DNA of 42,768 bases from a virus (lineage: Duplodnaviria; Heunggongvirae; Uroviricota; Caudoviricetes), in IMG/VR virus record IMGVR_UViG_2531839663_000008, positions 1-42,768 of that record; one strand, 5' to 3'. This document shows, piece after piece, positions 4,738-17,687 of this stretch. Under the pieces are notes generated by a model. It was given only the letters and a program-made list of their open reading frames with translations. It was not told where the DNA came from and ran no database searches. The position numbers and the translations under genes are program-made. Position 1 is the first letter of the stretch; every line of letters starts with the position of its first letter.

Positions 4738-5495
4738 TCAGCCTCCGTCTCTGCGACATTGACAGGTTCGGCGTTGTCGACAGCAAGACTCATGTCATAC
4801 ATGCGTCGTTTCTCAACTGCGCCGATCACCTGTTTCTCTTCGGCGCTCAGCGCCACCCAGAACTCCTGATACTTAACGGTTCCAAGGCGCGCGGCGGACT
4901 CACCTTTTGCGATCAGTTCCGGGCGGCGGCTATCTGATTCATGGCCCGCATGAACCTCTGCCGTTGTTCCTTCAATTACTCGCTCTGCCTCGTCCTGGTC
5001 GAAGATGCCAGCGAAACCAAAGGCCAGACGCGCGCACTGGATCAGCGTCTTGTGGCGAAGCATGCGGGTAGGGTGGGACTGCCATGGCTGAGTGTTGCGT
5101 TTGCACTCTCCCATGTACTCGGTGACGATGGTCGGGTGCTTACGGTCTTTGCGGTAAATCTTGCAGGTACACGCGCCTTCCTCCTTGTCGTAAGAGAACT
5201 CCATGCCGTCAAACTGAGGATGCTCGTTGATAATGCGAGCCCATCCATCAACGCCGACGACCGGGACAATCCCGCCTTTATCTGGGAATGCGTAAATCTC
5301 TTTGGTCCATGGGTTCAGGCCGTACTGGTTGGCGACGATCAACAGGGCTGTAAACTGCTCGTCCGTGACGTTGCCACTTTTGAACGCTGTATTCTTCAGC
5401 GTATTCATCAGGTCTGTACCGGCATCCATGCCGAGGCGTGCGGCCAGTTTCCCGGCCATGGTGGAAAGTGCAGTACTCATTGTTAAATCCCTCAA
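4734..5495 (-). CDS. recT: RecT-family single-strand annealing protein
   Basis: 253 aa; RecT-like sequence, paired with the YqaJ exonuclease as in Rac/lambdoid recombination modules. Confidence 0.8.
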   Translation of the reverse strand: MRDLTMSTALSTMAGKLAARLGMDAGTDLMNTLKNTAFKSGNVTDEQFTALLIVANQYGLNPWTKEIYAFPDKGGIVPVVGVDGWARIINEHPQFDGMEFSYDKEEGACTCKIYRKDRKHPTIVTEYMGECKRNTQPWQSHPTRMLRHKTLIQCARLAFGFAGIFDQDEAERVIEGTTAEVHAGHESDSRRPELIAKGESAARLGTVKYQEFWVALSAEEKQVIGAVEKRRMYDMSLAVDNAEPVNVAETEAE

Positions 5496-7575: not shown

Positions 7576-7716
7576 CTTAATCATTGGGTAAGCCAGAGCA
7601 ATTACACCTGCCACTAATACCCCGTCAGCCAGCATCGACATCAACTTCCCGGTGAAATCGACAGCAATCACCAGGAAGAGGAGGACGCCGATAATCAACC
7701 AGCGCAATTTATCCAT
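7576..7716 (-). CDS. Possible micro-membrane peptide (about 46 aa), absent from ORF track
   Basis: ATG at 7716 abuts the TerB-like stop; translation begins MDKLRWLIIGVLLFLVIAVDF (hydrophobic helix); exact frame and stop not verified. Confidence 0.3.
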
Positions 7717-8141
7717 CAGATATAAGCGTCGAGTGATAACTGAAGAGCCTGAGCGATTTTCTTCAGCTGTTTTTCTTCGTCTTCGCCGATGCCGTCGTTA
7801 TCGGCTACGTCAAGGCACAGGCAGAGCACATCAACTGCGTCTGGAGTACCTGCCACATCTGCAAGTTCGCGCATTGCCTGGGCATTAGCAGAGCGAGGGG
7901 ACGCTTCGTACTGTGCGCGAATGTTGCTGCTCATGCTGGCGATCTCACCTGCGAAAGCAGAGAACGCTGGTTTTGCCTGAATGGTTTTCTCCAGCGTTGC
8001 AATTTCTGACGCATCACAAGTACCGTCTGCATAAGCGATCGAGTAACAGCCCCACACCGTTGCTTCAACTGCGTCGCGGTTTTCCATCTTCTTCACTTCG
8101 ACGATCGCCTTGCGTGCTTTTTTCTTAAACAGTCCGAACAT
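7716..8141 (-). CDS. TerB-like domain protein
   Basis: 141 aa with two YADG/DNDG ... DE.E.K-type repeats resembling TerB; first gene downstream of the leftward operator/promoter. Confidence 0.5.
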   Translation of the reverse strand: MFGLFKKKARKAIVEVKKMENRDAVEATVWGCYSIAYADGTCDASEIATLEKTIQAKPAFSAFAGEIASMSSNIRAQYEASPRSANAQAMRELADVAGTPDAVDVLCLCLDVADNDGIGEDEEKQLKKIAQALQLSLDAYI

Positions 8142-8525: not shown

Positions 8526-9203
8526 TTATGGGATGTTTAGTATTTTGGCATCAACCACAACGCCGATGATTTTGCAGTTTCCATTAATTTCTAGCATTGG
8601 ATATGCGGGGTTAAGGGGCTTTAGGAAGCGTCTGCCGGCATCGATTACAAGCTTCTTAAAGGTCGCTTCGTTATCGCCTTCTAGCTTCGCGACAACCAGC
8701 TTTCCGTTGCGCGGCTCGACTTCAGGATCAACAAGTATCGCTGCTCCCTCGGGTATGCTCAGTCCAGCCGGGGAGGTCATAGAATCCCCTTTAACGTCCA
8801 GCCAGAATGAATCTTCTGAGCAGTCAACAGTCGTGTCATACCAGCGATCTATCGCTCTTCGGTGATAAGGTTCTACAGCTTCCATCCATTGCCCCGCGCT
8901 TACCCAGCTGATTACAGGATAACTTCCTTTTGTCTCGTTCAGTCCTCGAAATGCAACGTTCGAAGGTTCTTCACTGGCGTGTAAAACATCCATCCAGCCA
9001 AAAGGCAGATCAAGCGCAGTTTCAATTTTGCGAGCCATCTTATCGCCGATATTGCGATGAGGGTTTGGTCCCAGTAGCTGGCTAAGCGCAGCCGGACTTG
9101 TCTCGATGAGCTCGGCAAACTGCGCTTTGGTCATTCCAGACTCGTGCTGACGCTTCTCGTACAGCGCTTCCAGGTTGGCTTTTCTGATTTCTTTATTTTC
9201 CAT
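8526..9203 (-). CDS. cI: CI-like prophage repressor (HTH domain plus S24 LexA-like peptidase domain)
   Basis: Start placed at MENKEIRK...; C-terminal half has S24-type layout with a GDSM motif; flanked by operator arrays and divergent from cro-like gene. Confidence 0.8.
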   Translation of the reverse strand: MENKEIRKANLEALYEKRQHESGMTKAQFAELIETSPAALSQLLGPNPHRNIGDKMARKIETALDLPFGWMDVLHASEEPSNVAFRGLNETKGSYPVISWVSAGQWMEAVEPYHRRAIDRWYDTTVDCSEDSFWLDVKGDSMTSPAGLSIPEGAAILVDPEVEPRNGKLVVAKLEGDNEATFKKLVIDAGRRFLKPLNPAYPMLEINGNCKIIGVVVDAKILNIP

Positions 9204-9220
9204 ACCTGCATTGTTACCGC

Positions 9221-9288
9221 TTTTAGCAAAATGATAAATGTGCAAATTGCTAAATGATGCTTGCGTAGTATTTAGCATAACGCTAAAC
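9221..9288. promoter_or_regulatory. Right operator array (OR-like) with divergent PR/PRM-type promoters
   Basis: TTTAGCAAAATGATAAA (9222-9238) and perfect dyad ATTTAGCATAACGCTAAA (9270-9287), same consensus as the left array; lies between cI and cro. Confidence 0.6.
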
Positions 9289-9319
9289 TCCAAATCAAAC
9301 GACTCACCCGGAGACACCA

Positions 9320-9553
9320 ATGAGCACTGAACTACACCGCTGGCGCAAGGCCGCCACTACCGACGAATGGGCGCAGCTCGCAAAGTTGGCTAACACGACG
9401 CCAGGTTACCTGGACCAGATCGCCTACGGAAATCGCCGGGCATCTCCAGAAATGGCATCTGCTATCGAGAAAGGCACGAAGAATTTTCACCGCCAGGCTC
9501 CGGTCCTAAAAGAAAGCCTGGTATTCGCATCGCCGCGTGATACTGCGGCCTAA
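9320..9553 (+). CDS. cro: Cro-like HTH regulator (Cro/YdaS-type)
   Basis: 77 aa; HTH segment TTPGYLDQIAYGNRRAS; GGAGA RBS upstream; divergent from cI across the operators. Confidence 0.6.
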   Translation: MSTELHRWRKAATTDEWAQLAKLANTTPGYLDQIAYGNRRASPEMASAIEKGTKNFHRQAPVLKESLVFASPRDTAA

Positions 9554-9570: not shown

Positions 9571-10116
9571 ATGCATTCACTTGCGTATCAACAAGGTAAC
9601 AAATTTTCGCCAACGGCGATGATTTACCAGAATCGCCGGGAGCCTGATTCCACGGCGTTAAACATCGATGGGATCCGCGCAGCTGTTCGCGCCTGGGCAG
9701 CTGATTGCCGAAGCCGTGAATTTGTCGCCGCGCTGATCGTGGAAGAGTGGCGGGCGTCCGGCGGAACCGGTCTGGATATCCCGACTGACTCGCACCGCCA
9801 GATGCAGAAAGTGTTTCGATGGATTGATGGCGATACCGAATACGCCGCCAACAACATTCGCCAGCTGGCCCCGGCAATCATGTCGGTCCTGCCGCTGGAG
9901 TACCGAAACCGTCTGGCGCCGCAGAACGACACGATGTCGCTGATCGCCTCTGCGATGAAAGAGTGTGCCGAGGCTAAACAGGCCGTGCTGCTGGACGCTC
10001 CAGAGCATCAGAAGCTCAAAGAGGTAAGCGAGGGTATAGCGTCGCTGTTCCGCCTCATGCCGGAGCAGGTAGGACCGCTGATGACGATGGTTACATCGAT
10101 GCTGGGGGTTATATGA
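9571..10116 (+). CDS. Phage regulatory protein at CII-like position (family uncertain, possibly YdaT-like)
   Basis: 181-aa ORF directly after cro-like gene and before the replication genes. Confidence 0.4.
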   Translation: MHSLAYQQGNKFSPTAMIYQNRREPDSTALNIDGIRAAVRAWAADCRSREFVAALIVEEWRASGGTGLDIPTDSHRQMQKVFRWIDGDTEYAANNIRQLAPAIMSVLPLEYRNRLAPQNDTMSLIASAMKECAEAKQAVLLDAPEHQKLKEVSEGIASLFRLMPEQVGPLMTMVTSMLGVI

Positions 10117-10201
10117 GAGGCACAAGAAAAGAAAAAGCCCTTGAAGCGGTAACTTCAAAGGCCCTTATCACACTGTGTTACGCCAAGTAACGGGAGTAAG
10201 T

Positions 10202-11110
10202 ATGTCAAACACCGCTGAAATAATCAATTTCCCAAATAAAACCGAACAACCGGGAGGTCGTATGGTCGACCTGTCGAACGGGTATACCAAGGTCGCTAAC
10301 GAGATCCAACAGCTTAAGCCTCGCCTGAGACTGTCAGGCCGGGAATGGCAATGTTTTGAGGCGGTGATCTGGCTTACCTACGGCTGGAACAAGAAACAGG
10401 ACCGCGTGACAAATACGGTTATTGCCGAGCTTACGGGCCTGAGCGATACGCATGTATCGGACGCGCTTAAGTCTCTCGCAGAACGCAAAATCATCTTTTC
10501 ACAGAAGCAGGGCATGATGAAAATCGTCGGTGTAAACACTGACCTTTCAGCATGGATTTTAGACAAACCGGAAACGGGAAGAAAATTCCCGAAAACGGGA
10601 AAATCCTTCCCGAAATCAGGAATAACCTTCCCGAAAACGGTAGACACCCAATACAAGAACAAGAACAGTATTAAAAGATCTTCGTCCGAGAATTCTGACG
10701 AATCCTCTGACGCACGTCTGAAGAAATTTTTATCAACTCATCCTGAAGCTGCGGTCTACACACCATCCGGTGCGAAGTGGGGCTCTGCTGAAGACCTCGA
10801 GACAGCTAAGTGGATTTCCTCCAGGGTGAAGCTGATTAACCCAACCTGCAAAGCCCCGGACATGACCTCCTGGTCTAACACTGTTCGCCTGATGCGCCAG
10901 ATAGACAACCGGTCGCACCAGGACATCTGCGCGCTGTATGACTGGGCTAGCAAACACCACTTCTGGCAGACCAACATCCTGAGTCCCGAAAGCCTGCGTA
11001 AGCAGTGGGACAAGCTGACAATGCAGCGTAACGCCGGAGGTGAGCAGCGCGCTGTCAAGCCAGATCTGGACTTCAACAACACTGACTGGGCCTATGGGGT
11101 GATCCGATGA
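10202..11110 (+). CDS. Replication initiation protein, lambda O-like
   Basis: Start at ATG preceded by GGGAG RBS; iteron array lies inside the gene and encodes FPKTG/FPKSG peptide repeats; immediately followed by P-like gene. Confidence 0.75.
   Translation: MSNTAEIINFPNKTEQPGGRMVDLSNGYTKVANEIQQLKPRLRLSGREWQCFEAVIWLTYGWNKKQDRVTNTVIAELTGLSDTHVSDALKSLAERKIIFSQKQGMMKIVGVNTDLSAWILDKPETGRKFPKTGKSFPKSGITFPKTVDTQYKNKNSIKRSSSENSDESSDARLKKFLSTHPEAAVYTPSGAKWGSAEDLETAKWISSRVKLINPTCKAPDMTSWSNTVRLMRQIDNRSHQDICALYDWASKHHFWQTNILSPESLRKQWDKLTMQRNAGGEQRAVKPDLDFNNTDWAYGVIR
10566..10700. repeat. Putative replication origin: four direct iterons plus AT-rich segment inside the O-like gene
   Basis: Repeats with core TCCCGAAAACGG(G), each with internal dyad symmetry (CCCGAAAACGGG), at about 10568-10645, followed by AT-rich DNA. 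Confidence 0.65.
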
Positions 11111-11796
11111 AATCTCTTGCAGAGCAGATGCGTAACCACGACCGCGAGCAGATGAGCCGCATGGCCCATAACCTGCCAGAGCAGTACCAGGAGTGCGCGC
11201 CGGTCGAGCAGGTGGCGCAGGTATTCAACAAGCTGTTCAACGAGCTGCGCGCCGCGTTCCCGGCCAGCATGGCGAACTTCCGCACCCAGGAAGACCTGAA
11301 CGAATTCCGCCGTCAGTGGCTGCTGGCGTTTCAGGAGAACGGGATCCACACCATGGCTCAGGTCGATGCCGGCATGCGCATTGCCCGCCGCCAGGAGCGC
11401 CCATTCCTGCCGTCGCCGGGCCAGTTCGTCGCCTGGTGCAAGCAGAGCGGCGGCGCGCTGGGCGTCAACGTTGACCAGGTGATCGCCGAATACTGGGACT
11501 GGCGTAACCGCTCGTTCGAATTCATCTCCAGCGAGCAATTTCCATGGTCGCAGCCGGTCATGTACCACATTTGCGTAGAATTGCGCCACCGCAGCACCGA
11601 GCGCCAGTTAACGCATGGTGAACTGGCACGCGAGGCAGGCGATCTGCTGGACATGTGGGAAAGGCGCGTCACCGAGGGTAAGCCAGTGCCGCCGGTACGC
11701 CGGGCTATTGCCGCACCAGCTGCCGAGCAAGGGCCGACGCCGATCCAGCTGCTGCTGGCCAAGTACAACCGCAACAAGTCGAACGGGATGGTGTGA
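11107..11796 (+). CDS. Replication protein P-like (helicase loader)
   Basis: 229 aa; start overlaps O-like stop by 4 nt; lambda-P-like position; family assignment by recollection only. Confidence 0.65.
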   Translation: MKSLAEQMRNHDREQMSRMAHNLPEQYQECAPVEQVAQVFNKLFNELRAAFPASMANFRTQEDLNEFRRQWLLAFQENGIHTMAQVDAGMRIARRQERPFLPSPGQFVAWCKQSGGALGVNVDQVIAEYWDWRNRSFEFISSEQFPWSQPVMYHICVELRHRSTERQLTHGELAREAGDLLDMWERRVTEGKPVPPVRRAIAAPAAEQGPTPIQLLLAKYNRNKSNGMV

Positions 11797-12142: not shown

Positions 12143-12600
12143 CAAACGTAAGTGCAGTAGAAAAAATGGCTGAATTAATGCAGCAGATGGAAGAGAACTC
12201 GCCCCGAGTTGCTGCTCTCCAGTATTGCCTGACACAGGTTGCGGAAAAAGTCGAAGAAGCAGAAAAGCGCAATGCGGAGCTTGAAGCCAGATGCGCTGCG
12301 CTGAGTGCGGAGAATTCGGGACTGAAGTCAGCGATTGACGCAACTATCGGATGGCAGCAATCAACCGATCCGGAGAATGTCGAAAGCGTTCGAATGCTGG
12401 TCGACGTTAAAACCCCGGTAACCGACGCTTTCCTGGCTGAAGTTCTGGCGCATGGGGTGGAGATGGCGGCTTGCGCTCTTGATGACGTAAACCAGTTTAA
12501 TTACGCAAACATGCTTGACGATTTAGCGCAGAAACTTCGCAAGGACTCCAACACCGCAGACCCGTTAGCCGCTGGCATCATCACTGAGGTGGGGGATTAG
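12139..12600 (+). CDS. Hypothetical coiled-coil protein
   Basis: Start at MTNVSAVEK... overlapping the upstream stop by 4 nt. Confidence 0.45.
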   Translation: MTNVSAVEKMAELMQQMEENSPRVAALQYCLTQVAEKVEEAEKRNAELEARCAALSAENSGLKSAIDATIGWQQSTDPENVESVRMLVDVKTPVTDAFLAEVLAHGVEMAACALDDVNQFNYANMLDDLAQKLRKDSNTADPLAAGIITEVGD

Positions 12601-12603
12601 GGT

Positions 12604-12831
12604 ATGGCTAAGTCACAAATGAAATTGGCTAATCGCGCATGGCGTACAGAAACAAAGGCTTTGGGCTGGCATGAAGGGCGTGGGATGAATCGCAAGCAAT
12701 GGAAAACTTTCTGCCGGGAAAATGCCGCCACAACCGTAGAGTCGCAAAAATACAGCGATTGTCCTGTATTTGGCGATCAGCAAGAAGCCAGAGAAATCGT
12801 TGCCGAAGAACTTACCGAATGGACACTATAG
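12604..12831 (+). CDS. Hypothetical small protein
   Basis: 75-aa ORF, co-directional and tightly packed. Confidence 0.4.
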   Translation: MAKSQMKLANRAWRTETKALGWHEGRGMNRKQWKTFCRENAATTVESQKYSDCPVFGDQQEAREIVAEELTEWTL

Positions 12832-12840
12832 GGCTAACCC

Positions 12841-13512
12841 ATGACCAAACTAACCAAAGAACGCTTGGAAGAAATCGCAGAGCTTGCAAGAAAGGCGACG
12901 TACAAGCCATGTGCAATGCACATGACGAATTTATTGGTAGTATGCGATAGCGAAGTTATCGAGGAAATGGCCCGCCAGTTGCTTGCAAGCATGGAGCAGG
13001 AGCCTGTGTCGTACACCTGTAGTGACGCGTTAGATGATGTTTACTGTGGTAGCGCAGCCATGATGGGGCCCGCTGGCGCTGTGGGAGAAGTACCACTCTA
13101 CGCAGCACCACAGTTACCGCAGCCAGCGGTGTTATCAGTGTCTGAGGGCGTGCTTAAAAGCCTCTTACCCGATGTTGAGAAGTCCGAGTTCTGGTTTGAG
13201 CATAATGGGAAAATCTTTTTTGAAGGTGTGAGGTTTAACAATGCGGTATTTGAAGCCTGCCGCGCCGCCATGCTTCAGGGTGCCGAACTTGTAAGTAATC
13301 GTGATGAGTTGCCGGATGGTTGGGTGGCTTGCAGTGAGCGGATGCCGGAGAAAGCTGATGAAGTTTTGTGTGCCAAAGAATTCGATGGTCCAGGTGATTG
13401 GCGCCAAAAGGTTGGTTATTACTTAGCGGGGAAATGGACGGTGTATAGCGCATCATGGACGCCGACCCACTGGATGCCACTGCCAGCAGCACCGCGGCAG
13501 GAGCTGAAGTGA
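12841..13512 (+). CDS. DUF551-like phage protein
   Basis: C-terminal GWVACSERMPEK ... GKWTVYSASWTPTHWMPLP resembles the DUF551 signature. Confidence 0.55.
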   Translation: MTKLTKERLEEIAELARKATYKPCAMHMTNLLVVCDSEVIEEMARQLLASMEQEPVSYTCSDALDDVYCGSAAMMGPAGAVGEVPLYAAPQLPQPAVLSVSEGVLKSLLPDVEKSEFWFEHNGKIFFEGVRFNNAVFEACRAAMLQGAELVSNRDELPDGWVACSERMPEKADEVLCAKEFDGPGDWRQKVGYYLAGKWTVYSASWTPTHWMPLPAAPRQELK

Positions 13513-13548
13513 CGAACAAGATGACGAGAGTTACCATAGATATAAATC

Positions 13549-13572
13549 AAGGCCCTTAGGGGCCTTTTATTC
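13549..13572 (+). terminator. Intrinsic terminator
   Basis: GGCCC-TTAG-GGGCC hairpin followed by TTTTATT. Confidence 0.6.
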
Positions 13573-13587
13573 TATGATAAACGGACT

Positions 13588-13932
13588 TTGTTTGAGAGTG
13601 ACGCCATGAAGCCCAAGAAGCTAAATGCTGAGCAGCAATACAAATTAGACCTTGAATTGGTCAAGAAGAAGCCTGCGAACCGGACCGAGGCAAAAGCCCA
13701 TTTGGCCTCACAGTTACGGATCAGCAAGTACAAGACGCAGACCTCTTCCAAAATCCGCGTAGGCAGTTTTAAGGGGCGGAAGAAGGTACATTTCAGTAAG
13801 GCGGAACGAGCAGCCAGGGCAGCACTAAATAAAGCAAATGCCATTAGATTTTCCGAAGGGGAGGTCGAGTCCGTCGATACGGATAGAATCTCAGAAAGTA
13901 ACAAACGCTGGCGCGGGAGAACTGCTGACTAA
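13588..13932 (+). CDS. Hypothetical basic (K/R-rich) protein
   Basis: 114-aa ORF after the terminator; start could instead be the ATG at 13606. Confidence 0.4.
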
Positions 13933-14186
13933 TGTCTGACTGGAATATTGCTGCAAAGCCGCAGGAAGAACGCGACAAGGTCAACGTTGACCTGGCAGCC
14001 TCCGGCGTAGCCTACAAAGAGCGCCTGAACATGCCGGTTATCGCTGAGGTGGTGATGCGTGAGCAGCCCGAGCATTTGCGTGATTACTTCCTTGAGCGTC
14101 TGAAGTTTTATCGCGAGAAGTCGATAGATTTACCAAGGGCATCCGATCCGCGGTACATGGAAATGGCTGATTCTAATAAAAAATAA
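13932..14186 (+). CDS. Hypothetical small protein
   Basis: 84 aa; start overlaps the upstream stop (translational coupling). Confidence 0.4.
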
Positions 14187-14237
14187 GCCCTAACGTGTTG
14201 ATGACCTTATCAGACCTAAACAGGAGGTTTTTCTAAA

Positions 14238-14777
14238 GTGATTAATATCATTGTTGATTCCAATGCTTGGAATTTTTTACATGTGAGTGGGATCTCCTTA
14301 AGCAACGAGCTTCTTAGCGATTATAACTTTCAGATAACATTAGAGGTGTCTCGTGAATTGCAGGAGTTAGTGGGCAAGGAAGGGAAGGAAGCTCTTTATG
14401 AATTCTTTGTAAGTGAGACTCAGTCGCTTGAAGAGCCCTTATGCTATTTTGGTTTTTACAATGAGTCAGTGCCTGCTGATGAACAGCGGTTTGGTGGATT
14501 TGGTGTTGGCGGGTTCGCATCTGTTCATCAAGATGATTATTTTCAGAAAACATTCCGCCAAATAAAATCATCAAAGCGTGGTATTTATTATGGCAATGAA
14601 GCTGACATGCTGATCGGGTCAAGAGGAATTGGGAACACTTTCATACTAACAGAAGATAATAATAAGTCAGGCCCGATGAAAGAGGCTGAGAACACTATCT
14701 TTGTTTCAAGAAAATTTCCTATGACTGTGGAGCAGTTTAAGGAATATCTTGATCTTGAAACCTCAAAAACTCTTTAG
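14238..14777 (+). CDS. PIN-like domain protein (putative nuclease), AT-rich accessory gene
   Basis: GTG start; N-terminal IIVDSNAWNFL and C-terminal EADMLIGSRGIGNTFILTEDNN match PIN-domain strand/acidic-residue patterns; gene is visibly AT-rich versus flanks. Confidence 0.45.
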   Translation: MINIIVDSNAWNFLHVSGISLSNELLSDYNFQITLEVSRELQELVGKEGKEALYEFFVSETQSLEEPLCYFGFYNESVPADEQRFGGFGVGGFASVHQDDYFQKTFRQIKSSKRGIYYGNEADMLIGSRGIGNTFILTEDNNKSGPMKEAENTIFVSRKFPMTVEQFKEYLDLETSKTL

Positions 14778-14964
14778 TTACTGCGCTTTGATTTTTCATA
14801 ATCACTCCGCCATAATCATGTCATCGGAGCCTGAACAACTCCGGTGACTTCTTCGCATTTAAGGGGACTTAAATGCGACCACAATCTGAACTCATCGCCT
14901 TGTCACAGATGCAGACATGCACCTGCGATTTTCTGCATTCTGCGGTTTCCGTCAAGGAGGCCGT

Positions 14965-15420
14965 ATGATTATCTCCAAAGACGGCATCAAGCTACACCGT
15001 GGAAATCTTGGTGCTATCACTCAGCATCTGAAGCCACTTCTCGAAAACGGTGAGTGCTTCCGGCTCCAACTCAAAGACTGGCGCGAGAAGAGAAGCCTTT
15101 CACAAAATAGTCTGAGCCACGTTTGGTACAAGGAAATAAGCGACTACCTGATCAAGTCTGGGCGCACTGACGCAACGCCTGCATGGGTAAAGCGAAACCT
15201 CAAAAAAACTTATCTGGGTTATGAAGAGGTTGAGTACACCGATTTCGTCACCGGAATTAAGACGATTGAATTAGAACTCCGCCACACGTCCGATCTGGAC
15301 ACTGGCGACATGCACCATTTCATGTGCCAGGTGGAAGGCTGGTGCGCTCAGTTTGGCCTGGTGCTCACAATCCCTCAAAGCAGCGAATTTCAGGTGCTGC
15401 GCGATAAGCAGGAGGCCTGA
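14965..15420 (+). CDS. ninB: NinB-like recombination protein
   Basis: Start at MIISKDGIK with AAGGAGG RBS; central SLSQNSLSHVWYKEISD resembles the NinB conserved region. Confidence 0.65.
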   Translation: MIISKDGIKLHRGNLGAITQHLKPLLENGECFRLQLKDWREKRSLSQNSLSHVWYKEISDYLIKSGRTDATPAWVKRNLKKTYLGYEEVEYTDFVTGIKTIELELRHTSDLDTGDMHHFMCQVEGWCAQFGLVLTIPQSSEFQVLRDKQEA

Positions 15421-15590: not shown

Positions 15591-16255
15591 GCATGTATCA
15601 ACGAATTAATGGCGCTGACTGGCGCAATATCTTCGTCGTCGGCGATCTGCATGGGTGCTACACGCTGCTGATGAATGAGCTCGAAAAGGTTTCGTTCGAC
15701 CCTGCGCGTGATTTGCTGATCTCGGTTGGTGACCTTGTTGACCGCGGCGCGGAAAACGTCGAGTGCCTGGATCTGATTACTATGCCGTGGTTCAGGGCAG
15801 TGCGCGGTAACCATGAGCAGATGATGGTTGATGGGCTTTCAGAGCATGGAAACGTCAATCACTGGCTGGTAAACGGTGGCGGTTGGTTCTTCAATCTCGA
15901 CTATGACAAAGAGGTGCTGGCTAAGGCTCTGGTTCACAAGGCAGCTGAGTTACCACTCATCATCGAGCTGGTTACCTCCGATCGGAAAATCGTAATTTGC
16001 CACGCTGACTACCCGCATAACGAATATGCGTTCGACAAGCCGGTCCCGAAAGACATGGTCATCTGGAATCGTGAGCGGGTTAGCGACGCTCAGGGCGGCA
16101 TTGTCTCGCCGATAGCCGGTGCTGATCTGTTTATCTTCGGCCACACCCCTGCGCGCCAGCCCCTGAAGTATACCAACCAGATGTACATCGACACAGGAGC
16201 GGTGTTTTGCGGAAACCTCACGCTGGTTCAGGTGCAAGGTGGTGACCATGAGTAA
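15587..16255 (+). CDS. Serine/threonine protein phosphatase (lambda NinI-like metallophosphatase)
   Basis: GDLHG, GDLVDRG and GNHE metallophosphoesterase motifs in order. Confidence 0.85.
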
Positions 16256-16532
16256 AACCTACCGCAGCAAGAAGTGGCTCGCCGCAGTCGGCCAGATTGA
16301 GCAATGCGTCCTTTGCGGAGCGTGGGGCGTACAGGTAGCACACCGCAATGAAGGTAAGGGAATTGGCATGAAGACAGACGACTGCGCCACCGCCGCTATC
16401 TGTGTCACCTGCCATTCAGAGATTGATAACGGGAAGGGGCTTAGCCGTGACGAGCGCCGCCAGTTAATGGATCGCGCCATCGTCCTGACCATTATTCAGA
16501 TTGCCCGTCGTGGCTTGGTGGTGCCTGCATGA
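16239..16532 (+). CDS. DUF1364-like Cys-rich protein (YbcO-like)
   Basis: 97 aa with CVLCG ... CVTCH cysteine pairs; immediately upstream of rusA, as ybcO is in DLP12. Confidence 0.5.
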
Positions 16533-16997: not shown

Positions 16998-17687
16998 ATG
17001 AACAGTCAGCAACTGGAATACGTACGTCAGCAGCTCATTGTGGCGACCGCAGACCTCAGCGGGGCGACGAAAGGGCAGCTGGTAGCTTTCGCCGAGAACG
17101 CGCAATTCACCGCGACGGCGCGGAGTCGGGGCCGGAAAAAGGTATTCGACAAGGATAAGCAGCGCATGGTCAATCCTGACGGCCAGCCGATGAGCGGCAA
17201 CCAGTCCCGCGCTAAGGGCTCGTCTATCGCGCTGGTGGGCCCGGTAGAGTACGGGACCGCATCGTGGCGCCGCGCTGTTCTGTCGCTTGAAGACCATCAG
17301 AAAGCGTGGCTGCTATGGAACTATAGCGAGAACGTGCGCTGGTGCTATCAGGTGGAAATCACTCAATGGGCGTGGGCAGAGTTCCGGGAGCAGCTCGGCG
17401 CGAAGAAGGTGGCCGGCAAAACGATGGAGCGCCTGAAGAAGCTTGTCTGGCTCGCGGCTCAGGACGTGAAAGCAGAGCTGGCAGGGCGTGAGACGTACGA
17501 ATATCAGGCGCTGGCGTCGCTGGTTGGCGTAACGCCAAAAAACTGGTCAGAGACCTTTACTGACCGCTGGGTTGAGATGCGCAGCATCTTCCTGCGACTG
17601 GATAGCGGGGCTTTATTGCAGGTTACGCGATCACGTTCACAACAAAAGGCGACAAATTTAGACTCAAGTCTTGCAAAACTGGATTGA
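16998..17687 (+). CDS. Late-gene antiterminator, Q-like (by position; family unverified)
   Basis: 229-aa ORF directly upstream of a strong sigma70-like promoter plus terminators and the lysis cassette. Confidence 0.5.
   Translation: MNSQQLEYVRQQLIVATADLSGATKGQLVAFAENAQFTATARSRGRKKVFDKDKQRMVNPDGQPMSGNQSRAKGSSIALVGPVEYGTASWRRAVLSLEDHQKAWLLWNYSENVRWCYQVEITQWAWAEFREQLGAKKVAGKTMERLKKLVWLAAQDVKAELAGRETYEYQALASLVGVTPKNWSETFTDRWVEMRSIFLRLDSGALLQVTRSRSQQKATNLDSSLAKLD

Follow-up and report, generated by a model that had tools for sequence, protein, structure and literature searches.

A predicted PIN-like nuclease gene as swappable cargo between theta and ninB in the nin region of a lambda-like prophage

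The stretch of viral DNA analyzed here (IMG/VR record IMGVR_UViG_2531839663_000008, positions 1 to 42,768; hereafter the window) is, over its whole length of 42,768 nucleotides (nt), a complete lambda-like prophage. Our subject is a gene in its nin region, which has the replication genes on one side and the late antiterminator gene Q on the other. This gene, open reading frame (ORF) 3, encodes a protein of 179 amino acids (aa) and stands between a gene for a DNA polymerase III theta subunit (ORF2) and the conserved gene ninB on the right. We consider it probable that ORF3 encodes a stand-alone, single-domain PIN-like nuclease of a rare family, which mobile elements carry as non-essential cargo, and not a VapBC toxin. 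Coordinates of the features at the locus are collected in Table 1.

The first line of evidence is a predicted model of the ORF3 protein, which has the Rossmannoid alpha/beta/alpha fold with a parallel five-stranded core sheet that is expected of a PIN domain. The closest structural neighbours of this model are VapC toxins, with Utp24, Nmd4, SMG6 and Nob1 next in line, and a previous model of lower quality agreed. The fold is of the minimal VapC type and does not contain the H3TH module of flap endonucleases. In PIN domains the active site consists of an Asp after strand S1, a carboxylate at S2 or in the following helix, acidic residues before helix H4 and an Asp or Glu after S4, supplemented by Ser or Thr (PMC5499597). 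Conservation of these positions was scored in 61 relatives with 22-67% identity. D7, which follows the strand at residues 2-6, is kept in 60 of them (the D-x-N motif in 48). E40 is kept in all 61 and E36 in 53, within a helix (35-42) that comes after the strand at 29-32. At the start of helix 121-127, E121 and D123 are kept in 59 and 60 relatives, respectively, and after strand 134-138 a Thr or Ser is found at position 138 in all 61 and an Asp or Glu at position 140 in 57. The acidic positions agree both with the published PIN definition and with the secondary structure of the model. By its predicted fold and active site ORF3 is a member of the PIN-like superfamily (VapC-like group). This agrees with the original prediction, made from the letters alone, which had recognized a PIN-like protein from its first and last acidic motifs: the predicted fold is of the PIN/VapC type, the acidic residues lie at the expected strand and helix ends, and all canonical positions are conserved in relatives.

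Between strand 3 and helix 4 the family carries an insert of its own (~45 residues; FGF...QRxGGFG...Y-x-NEAD), in which F71-G72-F73, R84, G87-F88 and the Y-x-N ahead of EAD are the conserved residues. The only profile match of ORF3 is PHROG 26388, a family of unknown function. In a large protein collection 26 close relatives were found, every one in Enterobacterales prophages, and two of these have received the automatic UniRef label 'PIN domain-containing protein'. An exhaustive profile search returned 178 cluster representatives of ~180 aa each; the wider family amounts to ~175 clusters in 5.8 billion proteins, all named 'hypothetical protein' and without a Pfam domain. Using tblastn, zero matches to ORF3 were obtained in 50,697 phage records, and a Foldseek comparison of the model with the BFVD viral structures yielded nothing at E <= 0.001. 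Among the 5,027 models of PADLOC-DB 2.0.0 there is no match to ORF3 or ORF2 at E <= 1, and for the upstream gene ORF1 a chance-level match only. A single-sequence PDB match of ORF3 to YwqG (E 0.047) was discarded as chance. Searches of the literature on the RefSeq accession, on PIN proteins in the nin region and on Hot/theta yielded nothing on the ORF3 family. We would class the gene as representing a new, uncurated family inside the known PIN-like superfamily; what sets this family apart is the conserved insert and its life as a solitary gene on mobile elements.

Compared with its homologues, ORF3 shows differences that pile up at third codon positions (for example 20/16/78). The frame is therefore under purifying selection, and ORF3 is a real gene. 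An antisense ORF of 102 aa (14314-14622) was rejected because codon-position statistics favour the plus frame. The gene starts with GTG, with AGGAGG 10 nt upstream. Its GC content is 39.1% against 51.7% for the window, and at third codon positions (GC3) 37.2% against 57-69% in the neighbouring genes; it is the lowest-GC stretch of 540 nt in the window (z = -3.1; 0.09% of stretches of this size are as low). Homologues are AT-rich in every host (35-45% GC). The AT-richness of this GTG-started ORF, estimated by eye in the original prediction, is borne out by these computed values.

The gene occupies a slot with sharp borders. In loci with other cargo, homology to the window stops at the 3' end of theta (14134-14186) and resumes at 14779-14788, 2-10 nt past the stop codon of the PIN gene. 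The segment 14187-14777 is a swappable AT-rich cassette in the theta/ninB slot. Elsewhere this place is held by a gene of 73 aa (HK639 and CobraSix), 86 aa (L002) or 216 aa (L003), none of them with a Pfam or PADLOC match. A segment-by-segment comparison of the window with the prophage of E. coli MLI104K1 (L004) gives an identity of 100% for the cassette leader, 99.8% for the PIN gene and 99.5% for the pre-ninB element downstream, against 91% for theta and 64% for ninB. This near-identical block of ~780 nt in diverged flanks has therefore recently been exchanged between prophages. Over 13400-15000 the window is 99.8% identical to a near-identical prophage of E. coli L6-21 (NZ_CP123963.1), and the PIN gene is carried by 3 of 5,426 complete E. 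coli genomes. The view that the nin region holds horizontally acquired cargo here is well founded, given the breakpoints, the alternative genes, the GC content and the block exchanged with L004.

The pre-ninB element contains a promoter-like sequence (TTGATT-17-CATAAT, 14788-14816) and two strong hairpins (~14820-14848 and ~14853-14878; fold z = -3.7) without a T-run. It is kept in phi80, HK225, HK639 and phage 82 and in 2,175 of the 5,426 E. coli genomes. The annotation of phage 82 gives a putative -35/-10, a 'possible regulator-binding' inverted repeat and the small orf33 at this site, and that of phi80 names it IR4. The element acts as a mosaic junction and its function has apparently never been established. 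An RNA antitoxin in its hairpins was set aside, since the element is present in these 2,175 genomes without the PIN gene. Enterobacter prophages have it twice, flanking the PIN cassette (5006-5476 and 6422-6844 in L005-L008; 5299-5474 in L028), at 89-90% and ~71% identity to the window; insertion of the PIN gene and pre-ninB as one block, by recombination at the element, would fit this pattern. Yet another arrangement is seen in Raoultella ornithinolytica (L017, 4849-5755; L018 is alike), where a PIN homologue of 81% identity lies inside the theta gene, with a degraded N-terminal piece of theta upstream and its intact C-terminal 52 codons downstream. The Raoultella cassette carries ~57 nt of pre-ninB and has a C(C/T)T(G/A)AACATG motif at both junctions, which looks like a microhomology-mediated insertion or rearrangement.

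On the left the slot is bounded by ORF2, which by sequence similarity is a bona fide homologue of DNA polymerase III theta and P1 Hot. It matches PF06440 at 1.1e-34 (118.4 bits; cutoff 34.6) and NCBIfam NF008207 with 107.9 bits (cutoff 97), and among PDB entries P1 HOT (1se7/2ido) is the best match at 5.4e-35, E. coli theta being found at 2e-21. The Hot-type theta of phage P1 stabilises the epsilon proofreading subunit. ORF2 would independently supply a theta subunit of this type, with putative binding to epsilon.

The stop codon of ORF1 overlaps the theta start by 1 nt (TAATG), confirming the two coupled small ORFs that had been noticed earlier, and ORF1 is basic as proposed (pI 10.5; 28 Lys plus Arg in 108 aa). 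Its open frame (13588-13932) opens with TTG; the ATG at 13606 is the likely start, since this is where both the PHROG profile and the RefSeq annotation (L001) begin. ORF1 matches phrog_14068, of unknown function, at 8e-69 over residues 7-114 of the 114-aa ORF. It has no relative in Pfam, NCBIfam or PDB, and tblastn of the 50,697 phage records gave zero matches. Several prophages keep ORF1 alongside theta; in L004 and CobraSix it is replaced before theta by ORFs of 60 aa, which share its C-terminal ~33 residues (phrog_16632). ORF1 is a possible functional partner of phage theta.

Upstream of ORF1 the hairpin proposed in the original prediction is present (AAGGCCC-TTAG-GGGCCTT followed by TTTTATTCT; 7-bp stem). 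It folds at -12.9 kcal/mol, a stability reached by 8 of 200 shuffles, and since 4 terminator-like sites were seen in 3 kb against 3.4 expected, the pattern alone is not above chance. Nevertheless, L002, L003 and L005 retain the hairpin with a G-U-compatible change, and HK639 has a different terminator, annotated by the depositor, at the equivalent position. Homology of L002, L003 and L005 to the window begins at 13483-13506. Terminator, ORF1 and theta form a single conserved module (13483-14186), which other prophages carry with different downstream genes.

Enterobacterial loci with the PIN gene were grouped into 14 distinct contexts, which are not phylogenetically independent. Theta is immediately upstream of the PIN gene or overlaps its start in six of these, lies ~1 kb upstream in two and is split around it in one (Raoultella); in the other five, the flanking sequence retrieved has no theta. 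In Pantoea loci (L012) there is a 4-nt overlap between the end of theta and the PIN start. Because theta-like genes are rare in prophages (among 5,426 E. coli genomes 24 have one, compared with 2,175 that have the pre-ninB/ninB region, and among 50,697 phage records 37), the linkage is far above the base rate; all three PIN-bearing E. coli genomes have theta within ~1 kb. The pairing is found both in the nin region and in the early-left operon of P22-like Pantoea prophages (beside erf/ssb), and is retained from 100% down to ~50% protein identity.

Outside the Enterobacterales the gene is solitary, with different neighbours in nine out of nine loci. It lies between cmoA/cmoB and a divergent gene of 395 aa without identity from profile search (L024), after a multi-pass membrane protein that by look, not by profile, resembles a transporter (L021), amid genes without assigned function (L022 and L023), beside a relaxase and Fic (L039), in a plasmid transfer region adjoining GmrSD (L040), in an integrase island (L041), after an ABC ATPase gene (L042), or in a 186-like prophage with int on one side and the repressor on the other (L043). 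The PIN proteins of Azonexus (L021), Chromohalobacter (L022) and an unclassified proteobacterium (L023) are by eye very similar in spite of their unrelated neighbourhoods, and this similarity across different orders suggests recent horizontal transfer of a solitary gene. The solitary state of the distant members argues against a VapBC pair, and likewise against an antitoxin role of theta or ORF1.

We propose the following explanation. The ORF3 product is probably an active endonuclease dependent on Mg2+ or Mn2+. RNA would be a likelier substrate than DNA, because the nearest folds are the VapC RNases and the rRNA-processing PIN proteins and the H3TH module is lacking. ORF1, theta and the PIN gene would be co-transcribed in the delayed-early rightward operon, downstream of the terminator. 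A scan of the plus strand over 12500-14540 found no promoter-like site, and with the terminator upstream this argues for expression in the lytic phase rather than in the lysogen: synthesis of the PIN protein would set in chiefly upon induction or infection, with antitermination, and not in the quiescent lysogen. The protein would most plausibly serve the mobile element in conflicts with its host or with competing elements, perhaps by cutting one particular RNA of the host or of a competitor, and would not act as the toxin of a classical VapBC pair.

Several observations weigh against this explanation. ORF3 has no match in Pfam or NCBIfam at E <= 1, including PF01850, PIN_2-12, DUF4411 and NYN, so the profile search against PIN, VapC and DUF4411 families that had been suggested as a check came out negative. 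A Pfam scan of the 61 relatives gave isolated sub-threshold matches (PIN_9 at 0.072 and NYN at 0.053, in one member each), and hhalign of the family profile with Shigella VapC (3tnd) was not significant (probability 0.4%). A PDB search with a first family profile does favour the fold, though weakly: its one hit is the PIN protein 1o4w (E 0.24), in an alignment that covers D7 and the E36-E40 helix (the RELEKL helix of 1o4w); a second profile returned nothing. Membership of the PIN superfamily leans on the predicted fold and the motif pattern. Concerning expression, the promoter scan looks for a consensus in a crude way and could miss a weak or non-sigma70 lysogen promoter, and no lambda N-type antiterminator was identified among the window ORFs scanned. 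Finally, theta is near the PIN gene in nine of 14 contexts against ~1% of ninB-bearing E. coli prophages, an enrichment that a model of purely independent cargo leaves unexplained.

According to the original prediction the nuclease was possibly a toxin or abortive-infection effector with one or both upstream small proteins as partners, so that a growth-arresting PIN protein would be neutralised by ORF1, theta or both. VapC toxins are indeed its closest structural neighbours, a small gene directly upstream gives a VapBC-like layout (with the 4-nt overlap of theta and PIN in Pantoea L012), and theta is near PIN in nine of the 14 contexts. Nonetheless we regard this as very unlikely. ORF2 is a clear theta/Hot homologue (PF06440, 1e-34; 1se7, 5e-35) without a DNA-binding antitoxin domain and not a toxin-antitoxin component, and for ORF1 no support was found: the ORF1-theta pair occurs with other cargo replacing PIN. 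Theta without PIN and PIN without theta both exist (the latter in five enterobacterial contexts), so theta was rejected as an antitoxin; all nine distant loci are solitary, one of them between divergent housekeeping genes, and PADLOC gives no match. A different role for theta is assumed if the PIN protein works with Hot/theta at the host replisome, for example processing an intermediate of replication or recombination or targeting epsilon-theta. Here the rarity of theta-like prophage genes makes their presence within ~1 kb of PIN in nine contexts meaningful, as does a pairing kept to ~50% identity in two operon positions, and the nin region is rich in nucleases for DNA structures (RusA, and NinG/Rap in other phages). 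The linkage is not obligatory, however, five contexts being without theta, and the family extends beyond the Enterobacterales, where theta does not exist. Moreover, the fold is of the minimal VapC type without the flap-endonuclease module, and neighbouring accessory genes can stay linked without a functional tie; the loci are not phylogenetically independent. A role at the replisome is in our view distinctly unlikely.

Alternatively, the gene might be a moron, a kind of autonomous cargo unit defined by its own promoter upstream and terminator downstream, and be expressed in the lysogen as a single-gene anti-phage defence or superinfection-exclusion nuclease. It has the hallmarks of defence cargo (AT-rich, rare, patchy, in a variable hotspot and associated with mobile elements), one relative adjoins the restriction enzyme GmrSD (L040) and another (L043) is placed in a 186-like prophage between int and the repressor gene. 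But there is a terminator upstream, no promoter-like site of its own was found in what is a crude consensus scan, and the position is inside a lytic delayed-early operon. Zero of the 5,027 PADLOC models match, and the other cargo of the slot does not consist of known defence genes either; we consider the moron unlikely. Even less is to be said for a homing-type selfish cassette, in which PIN promotes its own spread into theta/ninB junctions. The near-identical cassette within diverged flanks, the AT-rich free-standing gene between conserved genes, the Raoultella cassette inside a disrupted theta, where the two junctions share the microhomology CTGAACATG, and the two copies of pre-ninB that enclose the cassette in L005-L008 and L028 could all be read in this way. 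The identical block, however, includes the widely conserved pre-ninB, so that the usual mosaic exchange of lambdoid phages at conserved linkers accounts for it equally well, and distant members occur in unrelated contexts. To our knowledge there is no PIN-fold homing endonuclease, which counts against homing as well; this explanation is highly improbable. There is a bolder possibility, namely that the persistent pairing of Hot/theta and PIN reflects a functional two-gene module, whose nuclease acts at the epsilon-theta proofreading complex of the host replisome or is regulated by way of it, or that the ORF3 family is a new antitoxin-less single-gene defence or counter-defence nuclease of mobile elements, whose insert is a new regulatory one. 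We hold it only tentatively and see it as rather unlikely. Solitary PIN-like cargo remains the explanation that we prefer.

Table 1. Features of the theta/ninB locus, with positions in the window.
Feature	Position	Strand	Remark
O	10175-11110		replication gene
P	11107-11796		replication gene
Terminator-like hairpin and T-run	13549-13572	+	left end of the conserved terminator-ORF1-theta module
ORF1, basic 108-aa protein	13606-13932	+	phrog_14068
ORF2, DNA polymerase III theta (HolE), P1 Hot type, 84 aa	13932-14186	+	PF06440
PIN cassette leader, 51 nt	14187-14237	+	Shine-Dalgarno AGGAGG at 14222-14227
ORF3, predicted 179-aa PIN-like (VapC-fold) nuclease gene, GTG start	14238-14777	+	
Codon of D7	14256-14258		predicted catalytic
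Codon of E36	14343-14345		predicted catalytic
Codon of E40	14355-14357		predicted catalytic
Codon of E121	14598-14600		predicted catalytic
Codon of D123	14604-14606		predicted catalytic
Codon of T138	14649-14651		predicted catalytic
Codon of D140	14655-14657		predicted catalytic
Pre-ninB element, right-hand cassette junction	14778-14964	+	outside the PIN gene but moves with it
ninB/orf (YbcN family) recombination mediator	14965-15420	+	phrog_72, 2.6e-40; RefSeq annotation in L001
Q	16998-17687		late antiterminator

Some observations concern the prophage around the cassette. The start of ninB was called at 14917 in the ORF list, and RefSeq and the PHROG profile favour the ATG at 14965 (151 aa); the longer ORF overlaps the pre-ninB element with its first 16 codons, at the site of the small orf33 of phage 82. 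The immunity region has an S24/HTH repressor on the minus strand (8526-9320), with a YdaT-like protein to its right (9571-10116; PF06254, 2e-27) and a TerB-domain protein to its left (7716-8141; PF05099, 2e-7). Between the phosphatase and RusA genes a Cys-rich ORF of 97 aa (16239-16532), hypothetical in RefSeq, has a weak match to a YbcO/HNH-type nuclease (PF07102, 2.5e-4), which is under the cutoff. A scan of 13300-15200 with Rfam gave no match, and ARAGORN found zero tRNA genes in the window.

If the preferred explanation is true, there is an uncurated PIN-like family that temperate phages, plasmids and islands carry as a solitary gene, apparently free of antitoxins, and it becomes a question how a VapC-fold nuclease without an antitoxin stays harmless or gains specificity. 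The order theta, cargo, ninB is in addition a well-delimited example of a swappable slot in lambdoid prophages, with exchange boundaries known to the nucleotide. Why phages carry theta, an accessory gene that is little understood, is a question on which the linkage of PIN with Hot/theta gives a testable lead. Otherwise the finding is an ordinary one: a predicted nuclease of known fold in a known accessory region, and a PIN nuclease at this place would not surprise a specialist.

Among known systems, P1 Hot is a close relative of ORF2 (77% identity over 75 residues), but unlike P1 Hot and E. coli HolE, ORF2 lies in a lambdoid nin region and is translationally coupled to the basic ORF1. The resemblance of ORF3 to the rRNA-processing PIN proteins (Utp24/Fcf1, 5yz4; Nob1; AF0591, 1o4w) is at superfamily level only (E 0.24), and their biology is unrelated. 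VapC toxins (Rickettsia felis VapC2, 3zvk; Shigella VapC/MvpT, 6sd6) have no detectable profile similarity to ORF3, which differs from them in its insert of ~45 residues (strand 3 to helix 4), in its family-specific motifs and in its acidic nature (pI 4.65). VapBC pairs are recognized by an adjacent gene for a DNA-binding antitoxin (AbrB, RHH, PhD or HTH) that is conserved with the toxin; ORF3 has no such companion, and no VapB-type antitoxin is adjacent in any of more than 20 contexts. DUF4411 (PF14367) and other VapC-like PIN families were classified by Matelska et al. 2017 (PMC5499597). Like the DUF4411-type families, ORF3 is a single-domain bacterial PIN-like protein with four conserved acidic residues, and both are at least sometimes monocistronic with a suggested role in conflict systems. 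ORF3 differs from them in having no PF14367 or PIN_n match at E <= 1 and neither HTH nor ImmA-protease neighbours, and, unlike the DUF4411-type families, the ORF3 family has temperate phages, plasmids and islands as its carriers.

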